Source of the DNA: Candidatus Minusculum obligatum
GTDB taxonomy: Bacteria > Patescibacteriota > Minisyncoccia > Phycocordibacterales > Phycocordibacteraceae
Reading direction: 5' to 3'
Assembly: GCA_045401155.1 (NCBI GenBank)
Contig: CP174360.1
Location: 310,769-374,768 of the forward strand
DNA length: 64,000 nt
Each line of letters begins with the position of its first letter. The first letter of the stretch is position 1. The translations under genes were made by a program, and so were the position numbers. Shown here piece by piece: positions 26,301-43,594 of the stretch. Below the pieces are notes generated by a model. The model worked only from the letters and a program-made list of their open reading frames with translations, was not told the DNA's origin and did no database searches.

Positions 26301-26825
26301 TTAGTTGGGTAGTTTTTCAATAATCTCCGCGACCACATCATCTGATGGTTTGTTTGTGTGTATGGTGATGTTACCGTATTTCTTATACTGCTCAAAACGT
26401 TCTAAGAATTTTTTCTTTTCCCTTTTCTTGTCTAGACCATTCCATCGTTTTAATTGTCTTTCTGCAATCATTTCTACGTCTTGTTCCGGATTAGGAGAAG
26501 GAAGGAAAAGTATAGAATAACCAGTAGCTAGAATCTCTTCATTTTGCTTTATAACTTCTGGTAAATGTGTATGAACAAGAAAGCCAGATGATGTGGCGAG
26601 TACGGCTGGTTCTGAGATAGTTTCGGAAAGAAGTTTGGTAAGTTCTGAATTTTTCTCACAGTACTTATCGTATCCTTTGGTATCTATATAAGTTCCTATG
26701 TTTTCAATTTGAGTACAAAATTCTGAATCTACATCTATAAACGTGTATCCAAGTTTTTGTGCAAGTAGATTCCCGATTGTTGTCTTACCAACGCTGGCTG
26801 GTCCGATAAGAAGAATTAGTTTCAT
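26301..26825 (-). CDS. Shikimate-kinase-like P-loop NTP kinase, paralog 1 (cassette gene)
   Basis: MKLILLIGPASVGKTTIGNLLAQKLGYTFIDVDSEF. About 40% identical to 27801..28313. Start at MKLILL (26825) preferred over ORF-track 26885, which would read through the terminator hairpin. Confidence 0.65.
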   Translation of the reverse strand: MKLILLIGPASVGKTTIGNLLAQKLGYTFIDVDSEFCTQIENIGTYIDTKGYDKYCEKNSELTKLLSETISEPAVLATSSGFLVHTHLPEVIKQNEEILATGYSILFLPSPNPEQDVEMIAERQLKRWNGLDKKREKKKFLERFEQYKKYGNITIHTNKPSDDVVAEIIEKLPN

Positions 26826-26902
26826 TTTCTCTAGGATACCAAGGTTCGGAAATCCTCTACAGGGTATTAAAAAATAGCCCGTCAAATAAGGCTATTTTTG
26901 CT

Positions 26903-27800: not shown

Positions 27801-28313
27801 TCATGTCAATTTTTGGATGATTTCTTCAACTATGGTTTCTTTGTCTTTGCTTGGGTCAATTTGTATGTCTCCGTACTGTTTATATTTTGCATGTCTATCT
27901 AGAAACTTTTGTTTTTCTTTCTCAAAATCCAGATTCCACCGTTTTATCTGTCGAGCTGCTATTTGATCTGCAAATGATTCAGGAGGGAGTAGGAGTATAG
28001 ATACTCCATATTCTTTTAGAAGCTTTAAATGCTTTTGTACAAGATGTGGCGACTTCTCGTGTACAAGAAAACCTGAAGGAGTTGCAAAGATTATGTCTTT
28101 TGGATTTTCCTTTGTAAGTTTGAGAGCAAGTTCGGAGTTTGCTTCACAATAACTCTCATAACCATATTCTTTTAAATATTCTGATATTGGAGCAATTTGT
28201 GTACAGAATTCTTCGTCTATATCAATAAAGTTCTTATCAAGTCTCTTTGCGAGGCTGGTTCCAGCTGTTGTTTTTCCAACACTTGCAGGTCCGATCAGGA
28301 AGAGATTGTTCAT
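27801..28313 (-). CDS. Shikimate-kinase-like P-loop NTP kinase, paralog 2 (cassette gene)
   Basis: MNNLFLIGPASVGKTTAGTSLAKRLDKNFIDIDEEF. Same architecture as paralog 1. Confidence 0.65.
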   Translation of the reverse strand: MNNLFLIGPASVGKTTAGTSLAKRLDKNFIDIDEEFCTQIAPISEYLKEYGYESYCEANSELALKLTKENPKDIIFATPSGFLVHEKSPHLVQKHLKLLKEYGVSILLLPPESFADQIAARQIKRWNLDFEKEKQKFLDRHAKYKQYGDIQIDPSKDKETIVEEIIQKLT

Positions 28314-28359
28314 TAAAAAAAGTATAGCAAAACCTCCCAAAAGGAGGCCTGTACTGCCT

Positions 28360-31489: not shown

Positions 31490-31529
31490 TATAAAAACAG
31501 TATACCAAACGGCTCAATGCATTGAGCCG

Positions 31530-31811
31530 TTAAATTTTTTTGTAGTAAACGTGTTTTCCTGTTGTTCCTATCTGCTTTATTTCTCCTTCATTCTCTAATT
31601 CTTGGAGATATCTGGTTGCAGTTGCATCTGATACATTAAGAAGCTTTTCAATGTCATTGTTTTGTATTTTCTGGGCAGTTTTTAGGTGTTCAAGAATTTG
31701 CTCTTTTCTTTTTGTTTTCTGAGAGAGGGGGAGAGTGACTTGTCTTCGTGCAAGGTAAAAGCCGATAATTATTCCAGCAAATGCAATAAGAATAAAGGTA
31801 AGTATATTCAT
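31530..31811 (-). CDS. TM-anchored winged-HTH protein
   Basis: N-terminal TM helix. [34 protein letters not shown]. Confidence 0.55.
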
Positions 31812-31834
31812 TAGTTAGATTTTAGCACCTGTGC

Positions 31835-32812
31835 TCAAGTTCCAAGATCTTTTTTCGACTTTTTTGGGCAAGACCTTGAAAAATTACTTGTATGTATGTT
31901 TCCTGTTGATTCCTCCATGATAGTCATCTTAAACATTTTCTTTTCTTTGTTTAGATCTCCCCAAGGTATTTTGTCTTCTACTGTTTGAACAAGGACTCCT
32001 CTCAGTCCGCCAGGAAATTTTTCTTTAGACGCGACTTCTCCAAGAAGGAAAATAATAATTTCTCTTGAAAAGTAGAAAAACTTTATGGGATAAAATTTAA
32101 AAGCATCAGCAGCATTTTTCTTAAGAATAAGTGGGAAATAAGGTATCAATTTTTCAAATTTATTAGTGTGATATTCAATCGAATCTATTTTAAAGATTCC
32201 ATGTTCAACATCATTTCTTGCTTTTACAAATTCAGTTAACCACTCTTTTTTATTTTTTTGTATGAACTCCTCTAGTCTTCGCGCTTCATTTTTATCTGTA
32301 AATTTTGAAGAAAGGTTGCTCAACTTAGTTTCAAACTTTTTATGATCGTCTTTTCCAAAAAGAAACTCTATATTAAATCCTAAGTCACGAGAAAGTTTAC
32401 AAAGTGCATCTTTAACAATATCTCCATCTACAAATAAGTGCCTTGTATAGAAAGAGCAAATATGATCAAAATCCTTTACTTGCCACGTGTTGTTATTTTT
32501 TGTTACTCCAATACCCTCCTTCAGGTCGAATGTGTGTTTTTTGTAATCTTCCATGGCTCGTTCAGAGAGGGAAAATAGATCAAGTAATGATTCGTATAAT
32601 TTATTAAGATTCTCTGTCTCAATACATAAGTTTTGTAGTATTCCATTTATTTCAAAAAGGAAAGTGGTATGTATATCGTTAAAATTTCTTGGCGCCTCCT
32701 TAATCAAAGGTCCTTTTCTTGGGTACGGCTTACAGCAATTTTTAAATTTCACTCCACTGCCACACGGACATTTCGAATTAATTGTGAATCTATTTTCTTT
32801 TTTGGAAGCCAT
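31835..32812 (-). CDS. SEC-C motif (CPCGSGxKFKNCC) domain protein
   Basis: N-terminal SecA-C-terminal-like zinc motif CPCGSGVKFKNCC. Remainder unrecognised. Confidence 0.5.
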   Translation of the reverse strand: MASKKENRFTINSKCPCGSGVKFKNCCKPYPRKGPLIKEAPRNFNDIHTTFLFEINGILQNLCIETENLNKLYESLLDLFSLSERAMEDYKKHTFDLKEGIGVTKNNNTWQVKDFDHICSFYTRHLFVDGDIVKDALCKLSRDLGFNIEFLFGKDDHKKFETKLSNLSSKFTDKNEARRLEEFIQKNKKEWLTEFVKARNDVEHGIFKIDSIEYHTNKFEKLIPYFPLILKKNAADAFKFYPIKFFYFSREIIIFLLGEVASKEKFPGGLRGVLVQTVEDKIPWGDLNKEKKMFKMTIMEESTGNIHTSNFSRSCPKKSKKDLGT

Positions 32813-32884
32813 TATTCGTGTGTCACGTTTTAAATTCTCTGCTGTCTACCACATCTGTTTTTTGGTCTATTTTATTGAATGTTT

Positions 32885-33271
32885 CTAAGCAAGGGCATCA
32901 ATGCTTTGTTTGAGTTGTTTTTCTACATCTTGAGCAACATCTTTAAGTATATCTGATTCAACCATACTCATTGCGGCAGAAGGAAGGATAGAAGAAACAT
33001 ATGTATTCTTGTTTTGTTCGTACACAATCACATTACAAGGAAGAAGGAGTCCTATTTCTTTTTCTGCTGAGAGTGCTTTGTGCGCAAATGCAGGATTACA
33101 CGCGCCAAGAATTGTGTAGCGATCATAATCAACACCAATTTTTTCTTTCATGGTTTTTTGTACATCAATAGTTGTAAGTACTCCAAAACCATTATCAGCA
33201 AGTGATTTTTTCACAGCACCAATTGCCTCATCAAAAGGAAGGGACGTCTTTACGGTGTGACTGTATTTCAT
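32885..33271 (-). CDS. DUF302-family protein
   Basis: GLLLPCNVIVYEQ motif. Confidence 0.6.
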   Translation of the reverse strand: MKYSHTVKTSLPFDEAIGAVKKSLADNGFGVLTTIDVQKTMKEKIGVDYDRYTILGACNPAFAHKALSAEKEIGLLLPCNVIVYEQNKNTYVSSILPSAAMSMVESDILKDVAQDVEKQLKQSIDALA

Positions 33272-33507
33272 GCAAGTTTATTGTATGTCACTGCAAATAG
33301 ATAGAAAGCAATAAATGACATAACTGCAGCCTCAATCATTCCTGTTAGTGTTCCAATAACAGTGGGGGAATAGAAGAGGTGCATTTCTTGCATTGCTGAA
33401 ACGGCAATCGTATAAATTCCTAGAGAGTTAAAGATGGTTAGAATGAGCATAATAAGTGCAGAAACAATTCCTGCTGCATACCCAAGTGCTTTTGCGTGTA
33501 ATTTCAT
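33268..33507 (-). CDS. Small membrane protein
   Basis: 79 aa, 2-3 TM helices, 4-bp overlap with the DUF302 gene. Confidence 0.45.
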   Translation of the reverse strand: MKLHAKALGYAAGIVSALIMLILTIFNSLGIYTIAVSAMQEMHLFYSPTVIGTLTGMIEAAVMSFIAFYLFAVTYNKLA

Positions 33508-33552
33508 AGTAGAAAAAATTTACTTTAATAAAATAGGGGATAAAGAATTGAC

Positions 33553-33580
33553 GTATAGTACCCCCTAGGGGTATTATACC
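33553..33580. promoter_or_regulatory. Putative CsoR/RcnR-type operator within a TTGACG-N18-TATTAT promoter
   Basis: GTATAGTACCCCCTAGGGGTATTATAC: G/C tract flanked by an AT-rich inverted repeat, located in the divergent promoter region directly upstream of the csoR-like gene. Confidence 0.6.
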
Positions 33581-33585
33581 TGCTA

Positions 33586-33858
33586 ATGAAGAAAGATATC
33601 AAGAAGAGAGTTGTGCACAGGTTGAAAATCATCGAGGGGCAAGTAAAAGGTTTGCAAAGAATGGCAGAAGAAGAAGAGTATTGTATTAGCATCATTACTC
33701 AAGTTTCAGCAATGAGACAAGCACTTTCTTCTGTAGAAGACTTAATGCTTGAAAATCACTTACTTACACACGTGGTAAGCCAAATGAAGAGTGAGAAAGG
33801 TCAAAAGAAAGCAGTGGAGGAGATGTTGTCCATTTATAAACTTTCAAAGAAAAAGTAG
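33586..33858 (+). CDS. CsoR/RcnR/FrmR-family metal- or persulfide-sensing repressor
   Basis: DUF156 fold with YC at residues 32-33 and NHLLTH (His58, His62). Fingerprint is x-C-H-H. Confidence 0.7.
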   Translation: MKKDIKKRVVHRLKIIEGQVKGLQRMAEEEEYCISIITQVSAMRQALSSVEDLMLENHLLTHVVSQMKSEKGQKKAVEEMLSIYKLSKKK

Positions 33859-33862
33859 ATAT

Positions 33863-34690
33863 ATGAATGTAAAAATACTTGGAATTGGAGCTTTTGTCGC
33901 ATTACTCATTGCTGGCTTTGTGTTGGTGCAAGGTGGTGTTCCAGAATCTAAAATGGTTGAAGAGCATAGTGATTCTCTAGAATCATACGAAATGAGTCCT
34001 TCACAAGCTGTTAGCCGAATGCAAAGCAAAGATGATGTTGTGGTTCTTGATGTTCGAACAATTCAAGAATATGAAGAAATTCACCTTCAAAATGCTCTCT
34101 TGCTCCCCGTGCAGGAACTTTCTCAAGCTTCACTTGATGCGATTGGTCTTTCTGACAAAGATCAGGAAATAATTCTCTATTGCAGGAGTGGTGCTCGGAG
34201 TAAGACGGCTTTCGATATCATGAATTCTCTTGGGTATACAAACATAAAGAGTGTTGCAGGGGGAATGGTTCATTGGCAAGAAGATAATTACCCGCTTACA
34301 GAGGTGGGAAAGTTCAATGAATCAAAGAATATTCAGGAAAGTGAGGAAAATACAACAGGTCCAAAGATAAGTATCGATCGTAAATTACATGATTTTGGAG
34401 AGATTCCTCAATTTGCAGGTGTAGTACAGACAATGTTTACCGTTACAAATTTGGGGACAGAAACTCTTATTGTTGGCGATATTACAACCAGTTGTAGCTG
34501 TACGTCAGCAACACTGTCTTCATATTCTATTGGGGCAGGAGAGAGCGCTGAACTTACCGTTCTCTTTGATCCTGATTTACATGAAGAGCCAGAGGGTGTG
34601 TTTACGCGAACGGTATTTATCCCAAGTAATGACGTGAACACTCCAGAAGCAGAAGTTGCAGTACAAGTCGATATATTAGAAGGAGTTTAA
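33863..34690 (+). CDS. Membrane-anchored rhodanese-domain protein with C-terminal DUF1573 (SCxCT) domain
   Basis: TM helix. Rhodanese fold with active-site CRSGARS. C-terminal TSCSCTS motif. Confidence 0.65.
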   Translation: MNVKILGIGAFVALLIAGFVLVQGGVPESKMVEEHSDSLESYEMSPSQAVSRMQSKDDVVVLDVRTIQEYEEIHLQNALLLPVQELSQASLDAIGLSDKDQEIILYCRSGARSKTAFDIMNSLGYTNIKSVAGGMVHWQEDNYPLTEVGKFNESKNIQESEENTTGPKISIDRKLHDFGEIPQFAGVVQTMFTVTNLGTETLIVGDITTSCSCTSATLSSYSIGAGESAELTVLFDPDLHEEPEGVFTRTVFIPSNDVNTPEAEVAVQVDILEGV

Positions 34691-34701
34691 AATTAGATAA
34701 T

Positions 34702-35172
34702 ATGAACAATTACATTATAGGAGCACTAGTTATTGCAGGAGCACTTATTGCAGGAGCAATATTCTTTGTGGGTGGAGGTCCTGTTATAGAAAAGGTTGTG
34801 GCATCGGAGATTACTCTTGAGGCAAATGAGTATGATTTTGGCGATATTGACATTTTTGGTGGAAAGGTAAAAACAACTTTCCCTATCACAAATACTGGAA
34901 ATGCTGATGTGACAGTATTGTCTGGAGTTACAAGTTGTATCTGTACGGAAGGAGAAATAGATTCACTTTCCTTTGGTATGCATGGAAGTGATGGCGAGAC
35001 AGTAATACCGGCAGGAGAGACAAGGGAGTTGGTTGCAATATATGACCCATTAGCACACGGTCCTGATGGAGTTGGGAAAATAAAACGACAGTTGCAACTA
35101 AAAACAAATTCTTCAGTAACTGAGTACATCGATGTAAGTTTTACAGGAAATGTAGTAAAGAATGCTGAGTAA
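34702..35172 (+). CDS. DUF1573-domain protein
   Basis: TM anchor, TSCICTEGE motif. Confidence 0.55.
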   Translation: MNNYIIGALVIAGALIAGAIFFVGGGPVIEKVVASEITLEANEYDFGDIDIFGGKVKTTFPITNTGNADVTVLSGVTSCICTEGEIDSLSFGMHGSDGETVIPAGETRELVAIYDPLAHGPDGVGKIKRQLQLKTNSSVTEYIDVSFTGNVVKNAE

Positions 35173-35186
35173 CAAATAATATTCTC

Positions 35187-36140
35187 ATGGATAAAGTAAA
35201 AATAGCACTTGTAGGTATTGCATTCATTCTCTTGTCAATCATGCTTGTAGGAGGATTTAGTTTGCTAACTTCTCCTACTATGGTTCCAGGATTTTCTTTG
35301 GCATTTTTGGCAGGGATATCAATGATTGTGCTTCCGTGTACTTTTCCTCTTGTGTTTATCATTGTTCCTCTTGCGCTCTCAAAACAAAGCGTGAAAAAAG
35401 GAATCGTTATGGCGCTTCTTTTTGGTCTTGGTCTTACCGTTACATTTACGCTATATGGTCTAGCACTTGGATGGCTTGGTGGTTTTGTCGGATTGTACAA
35501 AGTTGTCAGTGCAATGCTTCTTATTGGGGGTATAGCAGCACTTTTCTTTGGATTGGCAGAGCTTGGCTTAGTAAACTTCTCTTTGCCATTTCGAAAAACT
35601 ATTCTTCCACAGTCGCTCCAGCAAAAGAATGACTACATACGGAGCTTCTTTCTAGGTTTCTTCTTGGGAAACGCCGGAGTTGGTTGCCCAAATCCAGCTT
35701 TCTATATTCTTTTTGGATATGTAGCTACACTTGGAGATCCTATTACTGGAGCATCTCTTGGAGCATTACATGGAATAGGGAGAATGGCTCCACTTCTATT
35801 TCTAGTAGTTCTTGCAATTCTTGGAATAAATATGATGGAAAAGGTGAGTACATATCAGGAAAGAGTGAAGCGCTGGGTTGCATGGTCGCTTGTCGTACTT
35901 GGGGCATTCATACTTAATTACGGACTTTTTGGCATGGCATGGTTTGAAAAATCAGGTATTCATGAAGCATGGAATCAGTTCCTTCTTGCGGTGGTTCCAA
36001 AAATTGCAGAGTCGGCAGAGCTTGAGTCAGCACTCCAGCTTCCACAAGGTGTTGGTGGTGTTATGCCTTGGATAGTTCTTGGTGCGGTTATAAGTGGAGT
36101 AATTGTATGGAGTGCAGTTAAGGCACGAAATAGTAAATAA
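35187..36140 (+). CDS. CcdA/DsbD-family thiol-disulfide transmembrane electron-transfer protein
   Basis: Conserved Cys in TM helices (LPCTFPLV and GVGCPNPAF). Confidence 0.65.
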   Translation: MDKVKIALVGIAFILLSIMLVGGFSLLTSPTMVPGFSLAFLAGISMIVLPCTFPLVFIIVPLALSKQSVKKGIVMALLFGLGLTVTFTLYGLALGWLGGFVGLYKVVSAMLLIGGIAALFFGLAELGLVNFSLPFRKTILPQSLQQKNDYIRSFFLGFFLGNAGVGCPNPAFYILFGYVATLGDPITGASLGALHGIGRMAPLLFLVVLAILGINMMEKVSTYQERVKRWVAWSLVVLGAFILNYGLFGMAWFEKSGIHEAWNQFLLAVVPKIAESAELESALQLPQGVGGVMPWIVLGAVISGVIVWSAVKARNSK

Positions 36141-36142
36141 TT

Positions 36143-36289
36143 ATGACTAACTTTATACAAATAGCATATGCACATGGAGGAGAGGAGGTTGAAACTGTAA
36201 CAACTCTTGATTTCTCAGGGCCACTTATTGCTCTGGGAATGATTGTCGCAGCAATTATTATTGCAAAAGTTATTTCTAAGAAAAAATAA
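36143..36289 (+). CDS. 48-aa small membrane protein (not in ORF track)
   Basis: MTNFIQIAYAHGGEEVETVTTLDFSGPLIALGMIVAAIIIAKVISKKK, tightly packed between ccdA-like and trx-like genes. Confidence 0.35.
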   Translation: MTNFIQIAYAHGGEEVETVTTLDFSGPLIALGMIVAAIIIAKVISKKK

Positions 36290-36290
36290 C

Positions 36291-36548
36291 ATGATTAAAG
36301 TAACGCTTGTTCGTCCAGAAGGGTGTCATCATTGTAAGGAGGTTAAAAATACGCTTGAGGGAATGAGAGATGAATTTCCTGATATTTCAATTGAAGAAAT
36401 TGATATGGTTACACCTGAAGGAAGGGAGCTTGTTCAAAAATATCGCATTCTATCAAGTCCGGGGATTTTAATTAATGATGAATTCTTTGCTTTTGGTGGC
36501 GCTACTGAGGAGCAGTTTAGAAAAAAGTTTAACGAAATTAATGGCTAG
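36291..36548 (+). CDS. Small thioredoxin/glutaredoxin-fold protein (CHHC active site)
   Basis: MIKVTLVRPEGCHHCKEVK. Start at ATG 36291 rather than ORF-track TTG 36243. Confidence 0.6.
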   Translation: MIKVTLVRPEGCHHCKEVKNTLEGMRDEFPDISIEEIDMVTPEGRELVQKYRILSSPGILINDEFFAFGGATEEQFRKKFNEING

Positions 36549-36562
36549 GCCCGATAAAGAAA

Positions 36563-37276
36563 ATGTTATTGGGAATTAAAAGTAAAAAAGTTGCACTCTT
36601 GCGCCACTTAGCAATGGCTATCGTTGGAGGACTGCTTGTATATTTGGTTTGGTCACTTAATGGTACGTGGAGTCCAGACATGCGATTGTGGAAAGCTTTT
36701 GGCGGAGCATCTTTTTTCCTCCTCTGGTTTGCTGTTGTTATTGGACCATTAGCGAAACTTCTTCCATCATTTAACTTAATGCTCGCATATCGTCGCGAGG
36801 CAGGAGTTTGGTTTTTTATCATCGCATTGGTGCATGGGTACCTCATTCTTGATGGCTGGGTGCGGTGGAATGTATGGGAATTTTTCGGCTATCAATACTT
36901 TACTGAAGTAGAGATGTATTTACGAGTTGAGCCTGGGTTTGGATTAGCAAGTTTACTTGGATTTGTTGCTCTCATGTTTGCTCTTGCGCTTGCTGCAACA
37001 TCTTTTGATTGGGCAGTTAATCTTCTAGGTATTACTTCTTGGAAATGGTTGCATATGTTTGCGTACGTTGTGTTTTATTTGGCAGCAATGCATGTTGTAT
37101 ATTTTGCTTTTATTCACTACACACCTTCGTTTAATAGGCTTGCAATGGGGCTTCCAACAGATTATCCAGATAACCCATTGAAATATTATTATCTCAACGC
37201 ACTTTTGAGTGTGTTTGTTTTGCAGACATCTGCTTTTATTGCAACGGTACGTAAAAATAAAAGAGCAAGCTGGTAG
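36563..37276 (+). CDS. Ferric-reductase-like transmembrane heme-binding component (MsrQ/YedZ-like)
   Basis: 6 TM helices with paired His (ALVHGY, AAMHVVYFAFIHY). Confidence 0.5.
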   Translation: MLLGIKSKKVALLRHLAMAIVGGLLVYLVWSLNGTWSPDMRLWKAFGGASFFLLWFAVVIGPLAKLLPSFNLMLAYRREAGVWFFIIALVHGYLILDGWVRWNVWEFFGYQYFTEVEMYLRVEPGFGLASLLGFVALMFALALAATSFDWAVNLLGITSWKWLHMFAYVVFYLAAMHVVYFAFIHYTPSFNRLAMGLPTDYPDNPLKYYYLNALLSVFVLQTSAFIATVRKNKRASW

Positions 37277-37279
37277 CGT

Positions 37280-37960
37280 ATGGTATTTGAAACAACAATT
37301 AAAGGACGTAAAAAAGTTGCAAAAGGTACTTGCGAAATAACTTTCAAAAGACCCGAGAAATTTGTATTTAAAGCAGGGCAATATATACAAATTGCCATAC
37401 CAGAATTACTCAAGTCAGATTTAAGGGGTAATTCACGACTATTCTCTGTCACTTCATCTCCGGATGATATAGAAAATATCCGCGTAGTTTTTAGAGTCTC
37501 TAATAGTGGGTTTAAACAAACACTGGTAAGCATGCCAGTTGGTGCAACGGTACATATTGAACAGGCTGCTGGAAGTTTTGTTTTACCGCAATCACCAAAA
37601 CAGCAACAAATTTTTGTTGCTGGCGGTGTTGGCATCTCTCCATTTATGAGTTACTTCAATCAAAAGAACACTCCATTTGAGAATGGACAGATCATTCTTT
37701 TTTATGGAAATCAAAACGAAGAAAGTGCCGCATACATTGCTGAGCTTCGCTCTTTTGCAAAGAGGTATCAATCTTTTTCACTACAAGAGCTGTATGAAAG
37801 ACCTTCCTCTGAATTCTTTAGGAGAAATGCGCAAATGTATAAAAATGCCGCATGGTGGGTGGTTGGGCCACCGGCAATGGTTGGAGTTGTTGTAAACGGA
37901 CTTCAATTAGGAGGTGTGGACCAAAATAATATTATAACTGAACCCTTTGAAGGATATTAG
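37280..37960 (+). CDS. FNR-like FAD/NAD(P)H oxidoreductase domain protein
   Basis: RLFSVTS (RxYS FAD motif), GGVGISPF (NAD motif). Confidence 0.6.
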   Translation: MVFETTIKGRKKVAKGTCEITFKRPEKFVFKAGQYIQIAIPELLKSDLRGNSRLFSVTSSPDDIENIRVVFRVSNSGFKQTLVSMPVGATVHIEQAAGSFVLPQSPKQQQIFVAGGVGISPFMSYFNQKNTPFENGQIILFYGNQNEESAAYIAELRSFAKRYQSFSLQELYERPSSEFFRRNAQMYKNAAWWVVGPPAMVGVVVNGLQLGGVDQNNIITEPFEGY

Positions 37961-37964
37961 ATAT

Positions 37965-38735
37965 ATGAAAAATACTTTAGGATTAATTGTTTTTATTCTC
38001 GTGCTTGTTGCACTAACTGCAATATTTTTTCTGAATGGCAGAAATACAGAAGTAACACCCGATGAAACATTTTCTATATCTGCTCAGGATATCAAAGACC
38101 AAATTACCATTGATCGTGTTGTTATGGACCAGCCAGGATTTATTGTGGCACGAGAAATTATAGATGGAAAACCGGGGCAGATAGTGGAAGTAAGTAAGTA
38201 TTTAAAGGTGGGTGAAAATGTTGATGTTGTTATAGGTCTTGCACAACCATTAATTGAGGGGGTTGGTGTGAGCAGTGATCAATTTGATCAAGAAATTGTT
38301 GTTGCTGTGTATTATGATGATGGAGATAAGGGGTTTAATCCGTCTCTTGATTCTCTTGCGTATCGTGCAGGAGAAGTGCTCGCACGGTTTGTCAAAACAG
38401 GAATAATGGCGCCTGAGTCAGCAGTGGTGCCAAACACTAAGGGTGAAAATATTGATGTTGCTCAAATAGTTACCTATACAGACAGTGGGTTTATTCCTCG
38501 GAACAGTGAAATTTCTCCTGGTGATACTGTTCGATTTATTAATAAGAGCAGTAATCAAATGTGGGTTGCTTCAAATGGGCACCCAGCGCATATGATACTT
38601 CCAACATTTGATCAGTTCAGTGCTTCTTCATATGGTGAAAGTTATGAATACACTTTTGAAAAAGAGGGGGTGTGGGAGTATCACGATCACATAAATGCTA
38701 GCCAGGTTGGTGTCATATTAGTTCATTCAAATTAA
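37965..38735 (+). CDS. Secreted hypothetical protein with C-terminal cupredoxin-like beta domain
   Basis: TM/signal N-terminus. C-terminal His residues (NGHPAH, YHDH), no Cys. Confidence 0.45.
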   Translation: MKNTLGLIVFILVLVALTAIFFLNGRNTEVTPDETFSISAQDIKDQITIDRVVMDQPGFIVAREIIDGKPGQIVEVSKYLKVGENVDVVIGLAQPLIEGVGVSSDQFDQEIVVAVYYDDGDKGFNPSLDSLAYRAGEVLARFVKTGIMAPESAVVPNTKGENIDVAQIVTYTDSGFIPRNSEISPGDTVRFINKSSNQMWVASNGHPAHMILPTFDQFSASSYGESYEYTFEKEGVWEYHDHINASQVGVILVHSN

Positions 38736-38740
38736 ATTAC

Positions 38741-39211
38741 ATGCAAAATACAATAAATATTTGGGGAGTGTCTGCCATTATTGGCATAACTATTCTATTG
38801 ATTGGTGGCGTCGCGCTATTGCCAAAATCTCCTGCGGGAGGGGGAGACGCTGTTGCTGCGGGACTCCATTGGCATCCCGAATTACAAATTTTTGTTGATG
38901 GAGAGAAGCAGCAAATTCCAGCAAATATAGGACTTGGTGGTGGCGGACATCAGCCAATACATACGCATACAGAAGACGTTGGGCAAGGAGTTCTTCACTT
39001 TGAATTTGGAGGAGTTGCCTATACAGGAGATCTCCGTTTGGGAAACTTCTTCCGTATTTGGGGAAATAAAGATATACAAACAGCGTTTGGCGTACTTGAA
39101 CAAATGATAGTAAATGGAGAAGAAAGCAGTGAATTTGGAGAATATGTTGTGCAAAGTGAAGACAAAATAGAGCTCCACTACAAGACTTTATTGCAGGGAG
39201 AGGTTATGTAG
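38741..39211 (+). CDS. His-rich putative metal-binding secreted protein
   Basis: TM anchor. LHWHPELQIFVDGEKQQIP, HQPIHTHTED, LHFEF. Confidence 0.45.
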   Translation: MQNTINIWGVSAIIGITILLIGGVALLPKSPAGGGDAVAAGLHWHPELQIFVDGEKQQIPANIGLGGGGHQPIHTHTEDVGQGVLHFEFGGVAYTGDLRLGNFFRIWGNKDIQTAFGVLEQMIVNGEESSEFGEYVVQSEDKIELHYKTLLQGEVM

Positions 39212-39254
39212 GCATGTTACTATTACTTAAATAAAAAAATAAAATATTGTTACT

Positions 39255-39980
39255 ATGGAAGAAAAAAAGAAAGAAGGGATGAATTTGGCAGTTCCGGGTG
39301 CGATTATGTTTGCTGGAATACTTATCGCTGGTGCACTAGTGTTCTCTTCACTGCAAAGCAGTGGGGGACAGCAAGTAGCTGAAGAGGCTCCACAAGACGC
39401 AGGGTCTCTTGACGCAATGGATCCAGTGTCAGAAAAAGATCACGTTCGAGGGAATCCAAATGCTCCAGTTATGATTGTTGAGTATTCAGACTATGAATGT
39501 CCTTTCTGTAAGCGCTTCCATGAGACCCTGAACCAGGTTATGGATACATATGGTGCTGAAGGAAAAGTTGCGTGGGTATATCGGCACTTTCCTCTTGACC
39601 AACTCCATCCAGTAAAAGCTCGGCAAGAAGCCGCAGCAGCAGAATGTGTTGCTGAAATTGGTGGAGATGACATGTTTTGGAGGTTCTCAGATAGATTCTT
39701 TGAACTTACGCCATCTAACAATCAAACCGACCTCACTGTGGTTCTTCCACAAATTTATTCTGAGTTAGGTCTTTCGCAGGCAAAGGTGGATGAGTGTGTT
39801 GCAAGTGGAAGGTATGATGATCATATTCAAGCTGAGTTTGAAAATGCTGTGGCAACTGGAGGTCGTGGTACGCCGTGGAGTATTCTGATAGCTGCAGACG
39901 GTACAAAGTACCCACTCTCTGGCGCACAACCTCTTAGTGCTATAAATCAGCTTATTGAACTTGGATTAGGAAACAACTAG
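39255..39980 (+). CDS. DsbA-like thiol:disulfide oxidoreductase, paralog 3
   Basis: TM anchor, CPFC, same architecture as the other two paralogs. Confidence 0.8.
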   Translation: MEEKKKEGMNLAVPGAIMFAGILIAGALVFSSLQSSGGQQVAEEAPQDAGSLDAMDPVSEKDHVRGNPNAPVMIVEYSDYECPFCKRFHETLNQVMDTYGAEGKVAWVYRHFPLDQLHPVKARQEAAAAECVAEIGGDDMFWRFSDRFFELTPSNNQTDLTVVLPQIYSELGLSQAKVDECVASGRYDDHIQAEFENAVATGGRGTPWSILIAADGTKYPLSGAQPLSAINQLIELGLGNN

Positions 39981-39984
39981 TCTT

Positions 39985-40506
39985 ATGGAGAAGCAAAGAA
40001 TATTCGCATATATTCTTATTGGAGCCATCATTTCTTTCATTGTTTTTTCTCTTGCTGTATTTCTTCCAAACCTTACTCTTGTATGGACGATAGCAAATTC
40101 TCCTGCTTTGTTAGGTGAAAAATTTGCACTGCTTGTGAGTTTATATGGTGCTATTGGAACAAACTTTACATTTCTTGCAGCGGGGTACACCATTTTGATG
40201 TCTCTCTTGTTTGGCTTAAATGTCGCACTGCTGATTTATCTTGTGCGTAGCAGGAGTGTTGGTGCTGTTGGTAAAAATGCCGCAGTTAGTATAGGGGGTC
40301 TTATAAGTGGAATACTGGGTGTTGGGTGTGCTGCTTGCGGCACATTTATTCTCTCAGCAATGCTTGGGCTTGTGGGTGCAGCGGGACTACTCGCGCTATT
40401 GCCACTTGGTGGAGAAGAGTTTGGAATAGTGGGAGTTATTTTGCTTGCCTATACAACATATGCACTGATCAAAAAAATTCGTGAACCAAATGTTTGCAGT
40501 GTTTAG
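39985..40506 (+). CDS. Membrane protein with intramembrane CAAC motif
   Basis: 4 TM helices, GVGCAACGTF in TM3. Possible DsbB/VKOR-analogous role is speculative. Confidence 0.45.
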   Translation: MEKQRIFAYILIGAIISFIVFSLAVFLPNLTLVWTIANSPALLGEKFALLVSLYGAIGTNFTFLAAGYTILMSLLFGLNVALLIYLVRSRSVGAVGKNAAVSIGGLISGILGVGCAACGTFILSAMLGLVGAAGLLALLPLGGEEFGIVGVILLAYTTYALIKKIREPNVCSV

Positions 40507-40515
40507 ATAATTAGT

Positions 40516-41001
40516 ATGGATATACTCATTATATTTCTTGGAAGCTATTTGCATTTCTTCATTATTGCAACAGCTTTATTAAGTGTTATTTTTGCATCTT
40601 CAAAAATACGTCTAGAATACATCTCTTTCTTAATTTTTGTTGGGCTGCTTGCTTATTTGTTAGGAGAGTTAGTTGGTATGGTTGTATATAATCCGCGACC
40701 TTTTGTTGTCTTGGATGTTGTTCCACTTATTCCTCATGATCCAACGAACGGATTTCCTTCTACGCATGCACTTGTTTCTATAAGCATTGCTTTTGCTGTG
40801 TTTATCTTTAACAAGAAACTTGGATTTATACTTTTCTTGTTTGGAATACTTGTTGGTGTTGGTCGTATTTTTGCTCAAATACACAGTGTTGAAGATGTTC
40901 TTGGGAGCATTGTTGTGTCGCTTGTAGCAGTATGTGCGGGGCTATTTGTTAAAAAGGTTTTTAGAAAACTCAAGGAGCAGAAGATTCTCATGAAATTTTA
41001 A
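40516..41001 (+). CDS. PAP2-superfamily phosphatase
   Basis: PAP2 motifs RPF, PSTH, GRIFAQIHSVEDV. Confidence 0.7.
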   Translation: MDILIIFLGSYLHFFIIATALLSVIFASSKIRLEYISFLIFVGLLAYLLGELVGMVVYNPRPFVVLDVVPLIPHDPTNGFPSTHALVSISIAFAVFIFNKKLGFILFLFGILVGVGRIFAQIHSVEDVLGSIVVSLVAVCAGLFVKKVFRKLKEQKILMKF

Positions 41002-41034: not shown

Positions 41035-41058
41035 AACGGCTCAGGCGGGTGAGCCGTT
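41035..41058. terminator. Terminator hairpin
   Basis: aacggctca-ggcggg-tgagccgtt. Confidence 0.6.
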
Positions 41059-41074
41059 TGGGAGAAAAAATCGC

Positions 41075-41392
41075 GCACAAATAGAAGTCCGTCATTTGCC
41101 CTTTCCCAAAAAATGGGGGCGCGGGAAAGGATAAAAGTGCAAAGAAGGATTCTATTTGTGCACGGCGAGCGGAGCGAGTCGTGCGGTGCGGAAAGTATGT
41201 GGAGATCACCTCGCGGAGGTGTATGTCTGATGTACCACCGGCTCTCGCCGTTCATTTCAGACTCCGTCTGAAATACATTCGGATTTCATCATATATACGG
41301 AGCCGGATAGTACAGAGTTCAGATTTTGGGAGATTTCCAAAATTCTGAAGGGGGAAATTCGCAAGGATTTCCCAGGGGGTTTTGAAGGAAGC
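41075..41392 (-). repeat. Y-core-X unit, copy D (inverted relative to copy C)
   Basis: Reverse complement matches Y over about 205 bp (palindrome at 41248-41282), core at 41298-41304, and X over about 90 bp. Confidence 0.85.
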
Positions 41393-41410: not shown

Positions 41411-42904
41411 ATGAGATTCTTTTTATACATACGCAAATCAACCGATGAGGATGATAGGCAGATATTGTCGCTTGAAGCGCAAGAATTTGAATTGAAGCAG
41501 TTGGCTTCGCAAGAGCAAATAGAGATAGTAGAGGTGTTTCGAGAGTCACAGACTGCAAAAGAACCAGGGCGGAAAGTTTTTAATGAAATGCTCTTGCGAA
41601 TAGAGAATGGGGAAGTTGATGGAATTCTATCGTGGCATCCGGATAGATTGGCACGCAATAGTGTAGATGGCGGACGTATTATTTATTTAGTGGATGCGGG
41701 GAAGATACAATTCCTCAAATTCCCAACATTCTGGTTTGAGCCAACGCCTCAAGGCAAATTCATGCTGAACATTGCTTTTGGTCAGTCGAAATATTTTGTT
41801 GATAATCTTTCAGAGAATACTCGTCGTGGACTTCGTCAAAAATTGCGCCGTGGCGAATGGCCGGGACCAGCACCCATTGGCTATCTAAACGATAAGTTAG
41901 GTCACACTATTGTGCTGGATCCCGAGCGTGCGCCACTTCTGCAGAAGTTGTTTGAGAAATATGCAGAGGGGAATTATTCTCTGAAAGATTTACAAAATAT
42001 TGCAAAGTCTATTGGCTTGTTTAGTAGGGGAGGAAAGGTGTTATCTGTTTCGCTTATTCAAAACATCCTCTCCAATCCTTTTTATTATGGAGTTATGAGA
42101 TATGGAGGAGAATTGTATGAAGCAAAACACGAGCCTTTGATTTCTAAGAAACTGTTTGATTCCATTCAGAAGATAATGGCTAGCAAGTCGAGACCTCGCA
42201 AACATGGAGAGGTAGAGTATCCACTGCGTGGATTATTTGAGTGTGGCGAGTGCTCGTGCGCCATTACTTCTGAAATGCAAAAAGGACATCATTATTATCG
42301 CTGCACGAAAAAGCGTGGCGCTTGCTCGCAAAAATATCTTCGAGAAGAGCTTTTGGTTGAGCAGGTTGATGATGTCCTTTCAAACGTTTCTATACCTGAT
42401 TCGTGGGCAGAGGAGATGCTCGTGAGATTGGATGAGGAGAAGGAGTCTGAGGAGAGAGAAACTTCTCTGTATGCTCAAAAATTAAGAGACGATATTGCAT
42501 CTTTTGATCTCAAGCTTGATGCACTTCTAGATACTTATTTAGAGAAAAGTATTTCAAAAGAGGAGTATCAGAGCAAAAAGCAAAAACTGTTAGATCAAAA
42601 GATAGATTTGCAGGAGAAATTAGACTCAATTTCGCATACAGGAAGTTTCTGGCTCGAACCGATGCGAAACTTAATTTTAGATAGTAAACAAGCCAAATAT
42701 ATTGCTTCACAAAAATCTCTCTTCGAGAAGAGAGATTTTTGCAAAAAGGTTGGCTCGAACCTTGTTTTAGTGGACAAACGAGTGTCCTTTTTCTTCAAAA
42801 CCCCCTGGGAAATCCTTGCGAATTTCCCCCTTCAGAATTTTGGAAATCTCCCAAAATCTGAACTCTGTACTATCCGGCTCCGCGGACAGGATTCGAACCT
42901 GTGA
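41411..42904 (+). CDS. Large serine recombinase (resolvase-domain integrase)
   Basis: N-terminal YIRKSTDEDDRQILSLEAQ with catalytic Ser. Recombinase domain, zinc ribbon CGECSCA...YYRC, coiled coil. ORF runs through repeat X and stops inside the tRNA 3' end. Confidence 0.85.
   Translation: MRFFLYIRKSTDEDDRQILSLEAQEFELKQLASQEQIEIVEVFRESQTAKEPGRKVFNEMLLRIENGEVDGILSWHPDRLARNSVDGGRIIYLVDAGKIQFLKFPTFWFEPTPQGKFMLNIAFGQSKYFVDNLSENTRRGLRQKLRRGEWPGPAPIGYLNDKLGHTIVLDPERAPLLQKLFEKYAEGNYSLKDLQNIAKSIGLFSRGGKVLSVSLIQNILSNPFYYGVMRYGGELYEAKHEPLISKKLFDSIQKIMASKSRPRKHGEVEYPLRGLFECGECSCAITSEMQKGHHYYRCTKKRGACSQKYLREELLVEQVDDVLSNVSIPDSWAEEMLVRLDEEKESEERETSLYAQKLRDDIASFDLKLDALLDTYLEKSISKEEYQSKKQKLLDQKIDLQEKLDSISHTGSFWLEPMRNLILDSKQAKYIASQKSLFEKRDFCKKVGSNLVLVDKRVSFFFKTPWEILANFPLQNFGNLPKSELCTIRLRGQDSNL
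42772..42890 (+). repeat. X repeat + core GGCTCCG, copy R, abutting the tRNA 3' end
   Basis: Identical to X in copy C. Inverted relative to X in copy D, so the recombinase gene is bracketed by roughly 100-bp inverted repeats. Confidence 0.85.
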
Positions 42905-43495
42905 CCTGCCGGTTACGCTTGATCCCACTATTTCTAGGGGTGCGGACTATATCATCACCCATCTTGCGATTAGGGTGGAAGGCGCTTCCCAAAGCTTTCG
43001 CTCCAGTACTCCCGTAAGGGATAGTCTCTGAACCTTCCTCGTGAGAGGCTTGGCTGCTGATTACCTGCAACATTACTTGCTAAGGCTTCCAGCAATTCAC
43101 CTTCTTTTCAACCTAAGTTTCCTTAGGAGGCTGCGTGGTGCCTGCGTGCAGTTCTGCGTGGCAATTTGCGCAAACAAGAATACATTTATCAAGTTCTTTT
43201 TGGATTTTCTCCCAAGAACGAGTTAGTCCTCTTGCTGATAATCCAAAATCTTTTTGCTTTGGATCTTTGTGATGAAAGGCAAGCGCTTGCTTACATTTTT
43301 TATATCCACAAATTTTGCATTTACCACCTCCGTATTCAAGAGCTTTGTTGCGAAGTTCCTTTCGTCGCTTTGCAACTGCCTTGCGGAGATATTCTGCACG
43401 GTCAGCGTATGTTCTTTTATCTGGCATACACATATGTAGTATACCAGAGGAACATGCGTTCACAGCCGGATGCTCTACCGCTGAGCTACCGCGGA
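42886..43495 (-). tRNA. tRNA (Asn-GUU if spliced by group I rules; His-GUG if co-linear) split by a ~538-nt anticodon-loop intron
   Basis: Exon 1 (43495..43462) is TCCGCGGTAGCTCAGCGGTAGAGCATCCGGCTGT. Exon 2 (42923..42886) is TAACCGGCAGGTCACAGGTTCGAATCCTGTCCGCGGAG. Acceptor stem is 7/7, D-arm and T-arm (GGTTCGAATCC) are canonical, discriminator is G. Confidence 0.75.
43113..43433 (-). CDS. Intron-encoded HNH homing endonuclease
   Basis: CKICGYKKCKQALAFHHKDPKQKD...CANCHAELH (HNH with two zinc knuckles). Lies wholly inside the tRNA intron. ORF-track N-terminal extension to 43571 rejected. Confidence 0.75.
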   Translation of the reverse strand: MCMPDKRTYADRAEYLRKAVAKRRKELRNKALEYGGGKCKICGYKKCKQALAFHHKDPKQKDFGLSARGLTRSWEKIQKELDKCILVCANCHAELHAGTTQPPKET

Positions 43496-43594
43496 ATATA
43501 AATACGCTCATGTGAAGCGTGAAGGCATTGTACCCAAAAAGGGTCATTTTGCAATGTGATATACTCACCAAATAGTAAGTAATGAATGTAATTT

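Follow-up and report, generated by a model that had tools for sequence, protein, structure and literature searches.

A probable copper-responsive CsoR operon of envelope thiol-redox and metal-handling genes in a Patescibacteria bacterium

A 64,000-nucleotide (nt) stretch of the genome of Candidatus Minusculum obligatum (contig CP174360.1, positions 310,769 to 374,768; hereafter the window) carries an island of 13 tightly packed plus-strand genes, separated by intergenic gaps of at most 43 nt, in which the first gene encodes a repressor of the CsoR family. The remaining 12 genes encode a membrane-anchored rhodanese-DUF1573 fusion, a second DUF1573 protein, a CcdA-type transporter, a very short open reading frame (ORF), a small thioredoxin, a haem membrane protein and its flavoprotein neighbour, two His-rich proteins, a DsbA-like protein, a membrane protein with a CAAC motif and a PAP2 phosphatase. 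Pfam searches confirmed every domain named in a first-pass annotation of the DNA (Rhodanese plus DUF1573, DUF1573, DsbD_TM, Thioredoxin_3, Ferric_reduct, FNR-like, DsbA and PAP2), and support its description of the island as one encoding extracytoplasmic thiol-redox and metal-handling proteins. The Patescibacteria (or Candidate Phyla Radiation, CPR) form a huge, nearly uncultivated branch of the bacteria, with tiny genomes and a single membrane that faces the environment directly.

Relatives of the island were collected from two starting points. A set seeded with the repressor gene, csoR, comprises 80 loci from many Patescibacteria lineages, with repressor relatives at 54-98% identity; every ORF from -6 kb to +10 kb around csoR was clustered for 79 loci plus the window, and the commonest clusters were annotated. 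An independent set, seeded with the haem membrane protein in a metagenome scan, comprises 53 loci, and counts in this set are lower bounds because many of its loci are short. Locus L001 is from a sister assembly of the window's genome and L081 is from a sister strain. Patescibacteria group bacterium UBA2103 also has a protein with exactly the sequence of the repressor (100% identity). An exact look-up of the rhodanese-DUF1573 protein returned no record, its start probably being called differently elsewhere.

The csoR gene (33586..33858, plus strand) encodes a protein of 90 amino acids (aa) that matches PF02583 with 84.2 bits against a cut-off of 22.8. The control region upstream of it spans 33508-33585 and contains a sigma-70-like promoter, TTGACG-N18-TATTAT (33548..33577, plus strand), that scores 10/12, with TTGACG at 33548-33553 and TATTAT at 33572-33577; the -10 hexamer ends 8 nt 5' of the csoR ATG. 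A 12-3-12 inverted repeat, GTATAGTACCCC-CTA-GGGGTATTATAC (33553..33579, on neither strand in particular), occupies the promoter spacer and overlaps the -10 hexamer, and 11 of its 12 arm positions are complementary. We consider this dyad to be the predicted CsoR operator. The dyad and promoter reported in the first-pass annotation are present, but the string given there for the dyad, ATACCCCCTAGGGGTAT, has one base wrong, because position 33558 is G and not A. The sister assembly carries a perfect version, AATACCCCCTAGGGGTATT. The 15-nt core of the dyad occurs once in the 64-kb window, and matches with three or fewer mismatches number four against a shuffle mean of 0.48, two of the four being the same palindrome read on both strands.

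The arrangement is conserved among the relatives. A strict pattern, ATACCCC-N2-4-GGGGTAT, is found 23-29 nt before the start codon in 75 of the 80 csoR-seeded loci, and degenerate dyads are visible by eye in four or five of those remaining; at L059 the dyad is displaced further upstream, where it precedes a small ORF. The dyad thus keeps the same promoter position in at least 75 of the 80 loci, which counters the possibility, entertained in the first-pass annotation, that it is not conserved upstream of homologous operons. TTGAC lies at most 14 nt upstream of the dyad in 60 of the 80 loci, and 48 of these 60 have a 17-18 nt spacer to a -10-like hexamer (TATTAT, TATCAT, TATAAT and the like), which takes its first three bases from the end of the right dyad arm. 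Among the 19 haem-seeded loci that include csoR, the strict dyad is present in 12, and a GACCCCC...GGGGTAT variant was seen by eye in five of the other seven. In total, the strict operator pattern gives 81 sites in 1.08 Mb, where by our own estimate fewer than one would be expected by chance; the sites that do not precede csoR are found before a P1B ATPase (L056, L071), CcdA (L021) or a small membrane protein.

Given this geometry of hexamer and dyad, a bound repressor must occlude RNA polymerase. In 69 of 76 loci only 6-9 nt separate the end of the -10-like hexamer from the csoR ATG, too few for a ribosome-binding site, and therefore csoR mRNA is probably leaderless throughout the clade, as it probably is in the window. 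The dyad has the form known for Cu-sensing CsoR proteins, that is, a G/C-tract inverted repeat overlapping the regulated promoter, and it equals the CsoR box of C. glutamicum, ATACCCCnnnGGGGTAT (PMC5057107). However, the dyad alone does not identify the effector, because persulfide-sensing CstR proteins use a very similar site, such as ATATACCCTTATGGGGTATAT in S. mitis (PMC8643695). From the pattern of conservation, we judge the predicted operator to be real, but to be an ordinary operator of the CsoR family.

The repressor bears the fingerprint x-C-H-H (C33, H58 and H62), with a second shell of Y32, which stands just before the Cys, and E79. There is one Cys in the protein, and all five residues are invariant among 22 diverse homologues. 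Y32 and E79 correspond to the Tyr35/Glu81 second shell of M. tuberculosis CsoR (E79 aligning with E81; residue numbers were counted by hand), which couples Cu(I) binding to DNA release. The closest solved structures by sequence are the Cu-CsoRs 4m1p, 4adz and 2hh7 from Geobacillus, Streptomyces and Mycobacterium, and the match to 4m1p (E=6e-13) exceeds that to T. thermophilus CsoR, 3aai (E=8e-8). With His as the Z ligand, the classical Cu(I) triad x-C-H-C is not present, although its Tyr/Glu second shell is. The protein instead has the T. thermophilus type of site, x-C-H-H without a conserved N-terminal ligand, His11 being replaced by Arg in many homologues, and this motif has been published for the T. 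thermophilus group of Cu-sensing CsoRs, cluster 17 of a sequence similarity network (PMC8643695).

The first-pass annotation was right to place the island under a CsoR-family regulator, as the PF02583 match and the conserved dyad indicate. Its further proposal, that the x-C-H-H fingerprint speaks for Ni/Co or persulfide and not for copper, does not hold in view of the single Cys, the lack of an N-terminal His, the published copper-group motif and the copper genes among the neighbours of csoR in related loci. RcnR (H-C-H-H) is not supported, given that the N-terminal His (His3 of the six-coordinate site) is absent from the N-terminus MKKDIKK; homologues conserve MKK(D/E)(I/V)KK, likewise without His. 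CstR, with an x-C-x-C dithiol, is not supported either, given the single Cys and the invariant His at the second Cys position. FrmR was also rejected, since residue 2 is Lys and not the characteristic Pro2 adjoining the sensing Cys, and the NCBIfam FrmR model scores 41 bits against a cut-off of 133.

The case for copper comes chiefly from the company that csoR keeps. Its commonest partner is a P1B ATPase of about 700 aa, which is present in 49 of the 80 csoR-seeded loci, always on the same strand and usually as the next gene. Among 52 such P1B ATPases, 31 have CPH and 11 have CPC in the fourth transmembrane segment (TM4), 47 contain YNxxxxP and 25 contain MSxST, and the N-termini are rich in His. 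Following the standard classification of P1B subtypes, we take CPH or CPC together with YNxxxxP to be signatures of copper pumps (CopB and CopA types) and not of Co/Ni pumps. The other recurrent neighbour clusters are DUF1573 (25 loci), CcdA (24), a Cys-rich family of no annotated function, c4 (20), DsbA (19), family c6 (15), the CAAC protein and a small two-TM protein, TM79 (13 each), the His-rich protein His156 (12), a Met-rich protein (11), the small thioredoxin (10), multicopper oxidase and DUF305 (8 each), DUF411 and AhpC/Redoxin (7 each), PAP2 (6-7), DUF7282 (5) and the FNR-like flavoprotein (3). DUF302 lies near csoR in 12-16 of the 80 loci, where it is mostly divergent. Four unannotated families recur in the copper islands of L002-L080 and are not in the window: c4 (Cys-rich, about 315 aa, 20 loci), c6 (membrane, about 140 aa, following the ATPase, 15 loci), c11 (Met-rich, secreted, 11 loci) and c29 (Cys-rich, about 210 aa).

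The independent set gives a matching picture. Among the 53 haem-seeded loci, an FNR-like gene is directly downstream of the haem protein gene in 42, and a DUF7282/cupredoxin-like gene is within about 2 kb in 34. The CAAC protein is present in 23 loci, DsbA in 20, csoR in 19, P1B ATPase and multicopper oxidase in 13 each, DUF411 in eight, DUF305 in seven and PAP2 in five. The usual order is DsbA-CAAC-DUF7282-haem-FNR, and L086 has the order PAP2-csoR-DUF7282-haem-FNR-P1B-c6-DUF411-multicopper oxidase. Thus, the genes are co-localised in other genomes, and the modules recur together across both sets of loci.

The repressors in this second set provide what we regard as the strongest argument about the effector. 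Of the 19 csoR genes, 13 encode C-H-C (L086, L090, L092, L094, L102, L103, L106, L113, L117, L119, L121, L124 and L133) and five encode C-H-H (L081, L089, L097, L108 and L129); the one remaining gene has Tyr in place of the His. Nearly all C-H-C and C-H-H csoR genes that lie beside haem, FNR, DsbA or copper modules share the operator type. This is a natural Cys/His swap of the third ligand inside one regulon, classical C-H-C forms with this operator having charge of the same modules in other lineages. Because the swap takes place inside one conserved copper gene set, the C-H-H form can be expected still to sense copper.

The window departs from this pattern. In L003 the gene order is csoR, rhodanese-DUF1573, DUF1573, CcdA, a small TM ORF, thioredoxin, P1B ATPase, DsbA and CAAC. 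The window has the same order except that the ATPase is replaced by a block of haem protein, FNR-like flavoprotein, DUF7282-cupredoxin protein and His156, and that PAP2 is appended. No P1B ATPase or multicopper oxidase was detected anywhere in the 64-kb window. Most relatives' modules flank a copper-exporting P1B ATPase, and the ATPase-free design of this copy is therefore unusual.

The thiol-related genes begin immediately after csoR. The first (33863..34690, plus strand) encodes a membrane-anchored protein in which Pfam recognizes a rhodanese domain, with the loop C107-RSGAR, and a DUF1573 domain with the motif C211-S-C213. The CRSGAR loop is invariant and the DUF1573 CxC is conserved in 13 such fusions, and a fusion of this kind lies near csoR in 27 of the 80 loci. 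The next gene (34702..35172, plus strand) encodes a membrane-anchored protein that is assigned to DUF1573 by Pfam and carries C79-I-C81. The CxC is kept in at least 80% of 26 homologues, and the protein has an NCBIfam match to OS_HP2. DUF1573 also occurs as a selenoprotein with UGC at the CxC motif (PMC9312934, PMC13188914), which suggests that the domain is redox-active or metal-binding.

The third gene of this group (35187..36140, plus strand) encodes a CcdA/DsbD-type transmembrane thiol-electron transporter (DsbD_TM, 37.7 bits, cut-off 27.1). Its place in the DsbD/CcdA superfamily is borne out by C51 and C167, which are conserved in 27 CcdA homologues. Both the rhodanese and CcdA have weak NCBIfam similarity to TsoB, a rhodanese/DsbD fusion selenoprotein. 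Further downstream, an 85-aa protein of thioredoxin fold with C12-H-H-C15 (36291..36548, plus strand; Pfam Thioredoxin_3) has a conserved CxxC whose first x position is taken by His in at least 80% of homologues. In each of the 11 loci in which tblastn detects both genes, its gene comes right after that of CcdA, and since the protein has no membrane segment we read it as a cytoplasmic electron donor to CcdA.

Towards the end of the operon, a membrane-anchored DsbA-like thiol oxidoreductase (39255..39980, plus strand; Pfam Thioredoxin_4 and DSBA) with a conserved CxxC, C82-P-F-C85, is followed by its constant neighbour, a polytopic membrane protein of 173 aa that we call CAAC173 (39985..40506, plus strand). 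In CAAC173 the motif G-C115-x-x-C118-G is invariant and lies in the middle of a TM helix, and C171 is near-invariant. By the positive-inside rule we infer that the CxxC is intramembrane and that the C-terminal Cys is cytoplasmic. This layout would fit a thiol or electron relay to DsbA, as in ScsB-ScsC, at least as well as a DsbB-like oxidant. CAAC173 has no family in Pfam or NCBIfam and no sequence match in the PDB even at E=10, and its fold matches are to generic helical bundles only. The possibility that it is a DsbB or VKOR was rejected, as there is no sequence or fold signal for either.

The block that takes the place of the ATPase begins with an MsrQ/YedZ-like haem-b membrane protein (36563..37276, plus strand; Ferric_reduct, 32.8 bits in Pfam). 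Among 44 homologues the conserved His residues are H91 in TM3, H164-x12-H177 in TM5 and H185 after TM5. The NCBIfam MsrQ model gives 35.5 bits (7e-9) against a cut-off of 130, and with this sub-cut-off score and no molybdoenzyme domain in any operon gene, the protein was not accepted as an MsrQ equivalog. A bis-haem NOX was also rejected, because the His pattern is that of MsrQ/YedZ and not the four-His pattern of NOX, and because the flavoprotein is a separate gene. This cytoplasmic FNR/Fre-like FAD/NAD(P)H flavoprotein (37280..37960, plus strand) matches NAD_binding_1, FAD_binding_6 and FAD_binding_8 in Pfam, and matches NCBIfam Fre at 5e-15, far below the cut-off score.

Gene 9 (37965..38735, plus strand, with 37965 as the probable start) encodes a membrane-anchored protein with a Pfam DUF7282 domain and a cupredoxin-like C-terminal domain. 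It conserves H206, H209, H240 and H242 (numbered from 37965) in the pattern H-P-x-H ... Y-H-D-H and contains no Cys. The C-terminal domain has weak plastocyanin/pseudoazurin matches (E about 1e-3), but being Cys-less it is not a type-1 cupredoxin, which would require His...Cys-His-Met. The following gene (38741..39211, plus strand) encodes His156, a membrane-anchored protein of 156 aa with invariant H43-W-H45, H74-T-H76 and H86-x-E88. His156 has no family in Pfam or NCBIfam, and a PDB sequence search was empty even at E=10. This multi-His beta-grasp protein is often near the haem/FNR/DUF7282 block. Some of its relatives (P0123-P0126, e.g. from UBA2163) are fused to a rhodanese domain in proteins of 256-263 aa, such that the rhodanese in this group is fused to either DUF1573 or His156.

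Membrane segments and extracytoplasmic placement were assigned by a hydropathy scan. The scan finds a single N-terminal membrane segment in each of the rhodanese-DUF1573, DUF1573, DUF7282, His156 and DsbA proteins, and none in the repressor, thioredoxin and flavoprotein. The two His-rich proteins had been described in the first-pass annotation as secreted. With one N-terminal hydrophobic segment each, they are probably membrane-anchored and not free, as are the DUF1573 and DsbA proteins.

Among the remaining features, the 48-aa ORF with one C-terminal TM segment (36143..36289, plus strand) is weakly supported as a gene; tblastn matches were found only in L001 (94%) and L003 (41%), and the ORF at the equivalent position of L003 is 77 aa long. 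The last operon gene encodes a PAP2-family membrane phosphatase (40516..41001, plus strand; Pfam PAP2, 54.8 bits). On the other side of the control region, a divergent pair of minus-strand genes encodes TM79, a 79-aa protein with two TM segments (33268..33507) whose start is 52 nt from the operator, and a DUF302 protein (32885..33271; 87 bits in Pfam). In 13 of the 80 loci a TM79 homologue either diverges from csoR or lies immediately downstream of it. This pair shares the control region and belongs to the unit.

After the last operon gene, a hairpin, AACGGCTCA-N6-TGAGCCGTT (41035..41058, plus strand), is a possible terminator. A second hairpin with the identical 9-bp stem, AACGGCTCA/TGAGCCGTT, and another loop follows the last minus-strand gene at 31508-31531. 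The window contains two hairpins with that stem, where 0.01 would be expected, and they close both outer ends of the divergent set. We rejected the notion that they are ends of a mobile element and judged them to be ordinary terminators; similar AAACGGC...GCCGTTT hairpins upstream of csoR elsewhere (L041, L056) suggest that they are probably lineage-typical.

Taken together, these characteristics make it likely, in our judgement, that the island is an autoregulated, copper-responsive CsoR operon that protects the cell envelope of a Patescibacteria bacterium. From the conservation of the site and the known mechanism of CsoR, we propose that at low copper CsoR would sit on the 12-3-12 dyad and keep csoR and the 12 genes behind it silent. 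With the dyad taking up both spacer and -10 element of the only strong promoter, a bound repressor would block transcription, and it may also block the divergent TM79-DUF302 pair. Binding of Cu(I) at C33, H58 and H62, with an allosteric second shell formed by Y32 and E79, would release the repressor. To judge from their domains, conserved residues and adjacency, the induced proteins may then guard the surface of the single-membrane cell from copper-driven thiol and redox damage. Electrons might pass from the cytoplasmic C-H-H-C thioredoxin via CcdA to the membrane-anchored DUF1573 CxC proteins, one of which is fused to a predicted active rhodanese, and the DUF1573 proteins might reduce or isomerise copper-oxidised thiols or bind Cu(I). 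The DsbA-like protein and the CAAC membrane protein may form a second thiol-exchange pair. In a further branch, the MsrQ-like haem protein and the Fre-like flavoprotein would export NAD(P)H electrons, for which the His-site cupredoxin-like protein is a likely acceptor, and multi-His His156 may also be involved.

A bolder joint reading has three parts: that the haem/FNR/DUF7282-cupredoxin block is an undescribed NAD(P)H-driven extracytoplasmic copper redox enzyme, that the DUF1573 CxC proteins are new CcdA-dependent surface thiol reductases or Cu(I) binders, and that CAAC173 is a new minimal membrane partner of DsbA. We offer this combination tentatively, and regard it as possible but doubtful. 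If true, the block would act on copper at the surface by changing or trapping its oxidation state, and could replace the efflux ATPase.

Several points weigh against the proposal of a copper-responsive operon and should temper its use. The operon has no copper exporter, chaperone or oxidase, and none lies within the 64 kb; because there is no exporter here, copper is inferred from relatives and not from this locus, genomic linkage to a copper exporter being absent in the window and present for the clade in 49 of the 80 loci. The extracytoplasmic location of the proteins is based on hydropathy alone, and the minus-strand promoter is a consensus match only. What accepts the electrons of the haem/FNR pair, in which direction DsbA and CAAC work and what DUF1573 acts on are guesses from adjacency. 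In addition, the C-H-H CsoR of T. thermophilus reportedly responds to several metals (PMC5057107), and rhodanese with DUF302 is typical of CsoR-family/CstR sulfur modules (PMC6305408).

This last point also favours a first alternative, in which the island is a cst-like operon for persulfide and other reactive sulfur: the regulator would respond to sulfane sulfur, and sulfide species at the surface would be detoxified by the rhodanese, DUF302 and the thiol relay. A predicted active rhodanese comes first after the regulator, DUF302 is divergent, the dyad resembles CstR operators (PMC8643695), and His156 homologues are sometimes fused to rhodanese. However, CstR chemistry needs two Cys (PMC8643695), whereas there is one here and an invariant His at the second position. 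Moreover, persulfide dioxygenase, sulfide:quinone oxidoreductase (SQR), CoA-persulfide reductase and TauE are not among the annotated recurrent neighbour clusters, in which the commonest members are copper ATPases and multicopper oxidases. We therefore consider this explanation improbable.

We assign a similarly low standing to a general operon for repair of oxidative damage to the envelope, derepressed through oxidation of the regulator's single Cys by hypochlorous acid (HOCl) or reactive oxygen species (ROS), with copper as one of several oxidants. The MsrQ/Fre-like pair is reminiscent of MsrPQ, a system induced by HOCl (PMC12525009), Trx, CcdA and DsbA are a generic set for thiol repair, and this copy is without a copper exporter. 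Against this, the Pfam searches reveal no MsrP-type molybdoenzyme or other Msr among the operon genes, the regulator retains the full Cu-site and second-shell residues, and the same modules occur with P1B ATPase, multicopper oxidase and DUF411 under classical C-H-C CsoRs.

Less probable still is a role in copper acquisition or cuproprotein maturation, whereby a surface cupric reductase would supply Cu(I) to binding proteins. The His- and Cys-rich surface proteins and the lack of an exporter in the operon could be so explained, and Ferric_reduct/FNR pairs reduce metals in the FRE systems of eukaryotes. Nonetheless, the same genes in relatives are co-operonic with exporters and oxidases, and the logic of this explanation is wrong, because CsoR-type repressors switch genes on at high copper. 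Finally, a Ni/Co-responsive, RcnR-like regulon is the least credible of the alternatives, since the shared C-H-H part and an NCBIfam RcnR score of 36 bits (far under the cut-off of 138) are outweighed by the lack of His at the N-terminal W position, by a repressor sequence nearer to Cu-CsoRs than to FrmR or InrS, by the CPH/CPC and YNxxxxP motifs of the neighbouring ATPases, which are copper-type and not Co/Ni signatures, and by the invariant Tyr/Glu second shell typical of Cu sensors.

The surroundings of the island have characteristics of their own. The control region and divergent genes (32001-34000) have a G+C content of 0.35, compared with 0.38-0.42 for the island and 0.42-0.47 further out, a dip that would be consistent with acquisition of the island. 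From DUF302 to the left hairpin, the minus strand (31530-32812) encodes a 325-aa SEC-C protein with a weak HEPN (Apea-like) match and a 93-aa membrane-anchored winged-helix protein; neither gene recurs in related loci. Further to the left are two shikimate-kinase-like paralogues on the minus strand, 1 kb apart (26301-26885 and 27801-28340; Pfam SKI, E about 1e-17 each).

Beyond the PAP2 gene, a GC-rich non-coding segment (41060-41297) gave a chance-level Rfam match only, and it ends at the left arm of an inverted repeat. The 93-nt arms of this repeat (41298-41390 and 42790-42882; 99% complementary) flank a large serine recombinase gene (41411-42904), and the recombinase and repeat could form a unit that inverts or is mobile. 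The C-terminus of the recombinase is encoded in the right arm, which begins at the 3' end of a tRNA gene that is split by a group I intron with an HNH endonuclease ORF (42876-43494, minus strand; D-arm GCTCAGCGGTAGAGC, T-arm ACAGGTTCGAATCCTGT). The intron matches Rfam RF00028 with 71.6 bits at 42924-43197, and the HNH ORF spans 43113-43571. ARAGORN reported no tRNA in the whole 64-kb window, presumably missing the split gene because of the intron. Large serine recombinases lie within 10 kb of the copper island in eight of the 80 and five of the 53 related loci. The sequence beyond PAP2 is different in the sister strain L081, where the recombinase is 75% identical and lies 2.7 kb further away.

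The value of the locus does not reside in its regulator, dyad and fingerprint, which are textbook, but in its uncharacterised families and ATPase-free design. The findings indicate that Patescibacteria share a well-defined CsoR regulon with a fixed operator, and the regulon is therefore predictable genome by genome. They also tie at least five uncharacterised families to copper stress, namely DUF1573 CxC, His156, CAAC173, DUF7282-cupredoxin and the MsrQ/Fre-like pair. The predicted thiol relay and the electron path to the His-site cupredoxin are directly testable, as the proteins are small and could be expressed in other hosts. In the literature searched (with subscription journals partly outside reach), neither this regulon in Patescibacteria nor a haem/cupredoxin pairing in copper resistance was found described. 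The view in the first-pass annotation that this combination of functions is undescribed holds to this extent, but the combination is not a one-off: its modules recur across Patescibacteria, and this is one way in which they are shuffled. Both regulator and operator belong to known kinds, whereas the accessory modules and their linkage to copper islands are undescribed in the searchable literature.

The closest known systems are the CsoR-controlled cop/cso operons of M. tuberculosis, B. subtilis, C. glutamicum and T. thermophilus (TTHA1719), which have a repressor of the same family, a G/C-tract operator overlapping the promoter and autoregulation (PMC8643695, PMC5057107). In sequence the Geobacillus and Streptomyces CsoRs resemble the repressor of the window more closely than the T. 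thermophilus CsoR does, and the operator published for T. thermophilus, also G/C-rich, has another sequence (PMC10318464). Shared with these operons are the Cys-His core and the Tyr/Glu second shell, and the first structural gene in relatives is a copper P1B ATPase. The window differs in its His Z ligand, in having no copZ or copA, and in having 12 envelope redox genes instead.

The Scs proteins (ScsABCD) form a proteobacterial periplasmic system that is not known to be under CsoR control. In Salmonella, Proteus and Caulobacter these copper-induced envelope thiol oxidoreductases counter copper-driven thiol damage, with a DsbD-superfamily transporter feeding Dsb/thioredoxin-fold partners, and copper-induced envelope thiol systems are thus an established concept (PMC10907172, PMC3322552). 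The likeness is at the level of superfamilies and domains only (DsbD_TM and the DsbA/thioredoxin folds). In the window the transporter is a minimal CcdA, its presumed clients are DUF1573 CxC proteins and a rhodanese, and the partner of DsbA is the unrelated CAAC protein.

The cst operons of CstR likewise combine a CsoR-family repressor and a similar operator with rhodanese and, in actinobacterial modules, DUF302 (PMC8643695, PMC6305408). In contrast, the regulator of the window has a single Cys, its operon includes no persulfide dioxygenase, SQR or CoA-persulfide reductase, and its rhodanese is predicted to be membrane-anchored on the outside and is fused to DUF1573. Lastly, MsrPQ with Fre similarly pairs a haem membrane protein that has three conserved His residues with a separate cytoplasmic NAD(P)H flavin reductase-like protein (PMC12525009). 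In the window, however, MsrP is absent, the conserved neighbour of the pair is instead the Cys-less DUF7282 and cupredoxin-like protein, and the flavoprotein gene has a fixed place immediately after that of the haem protein.

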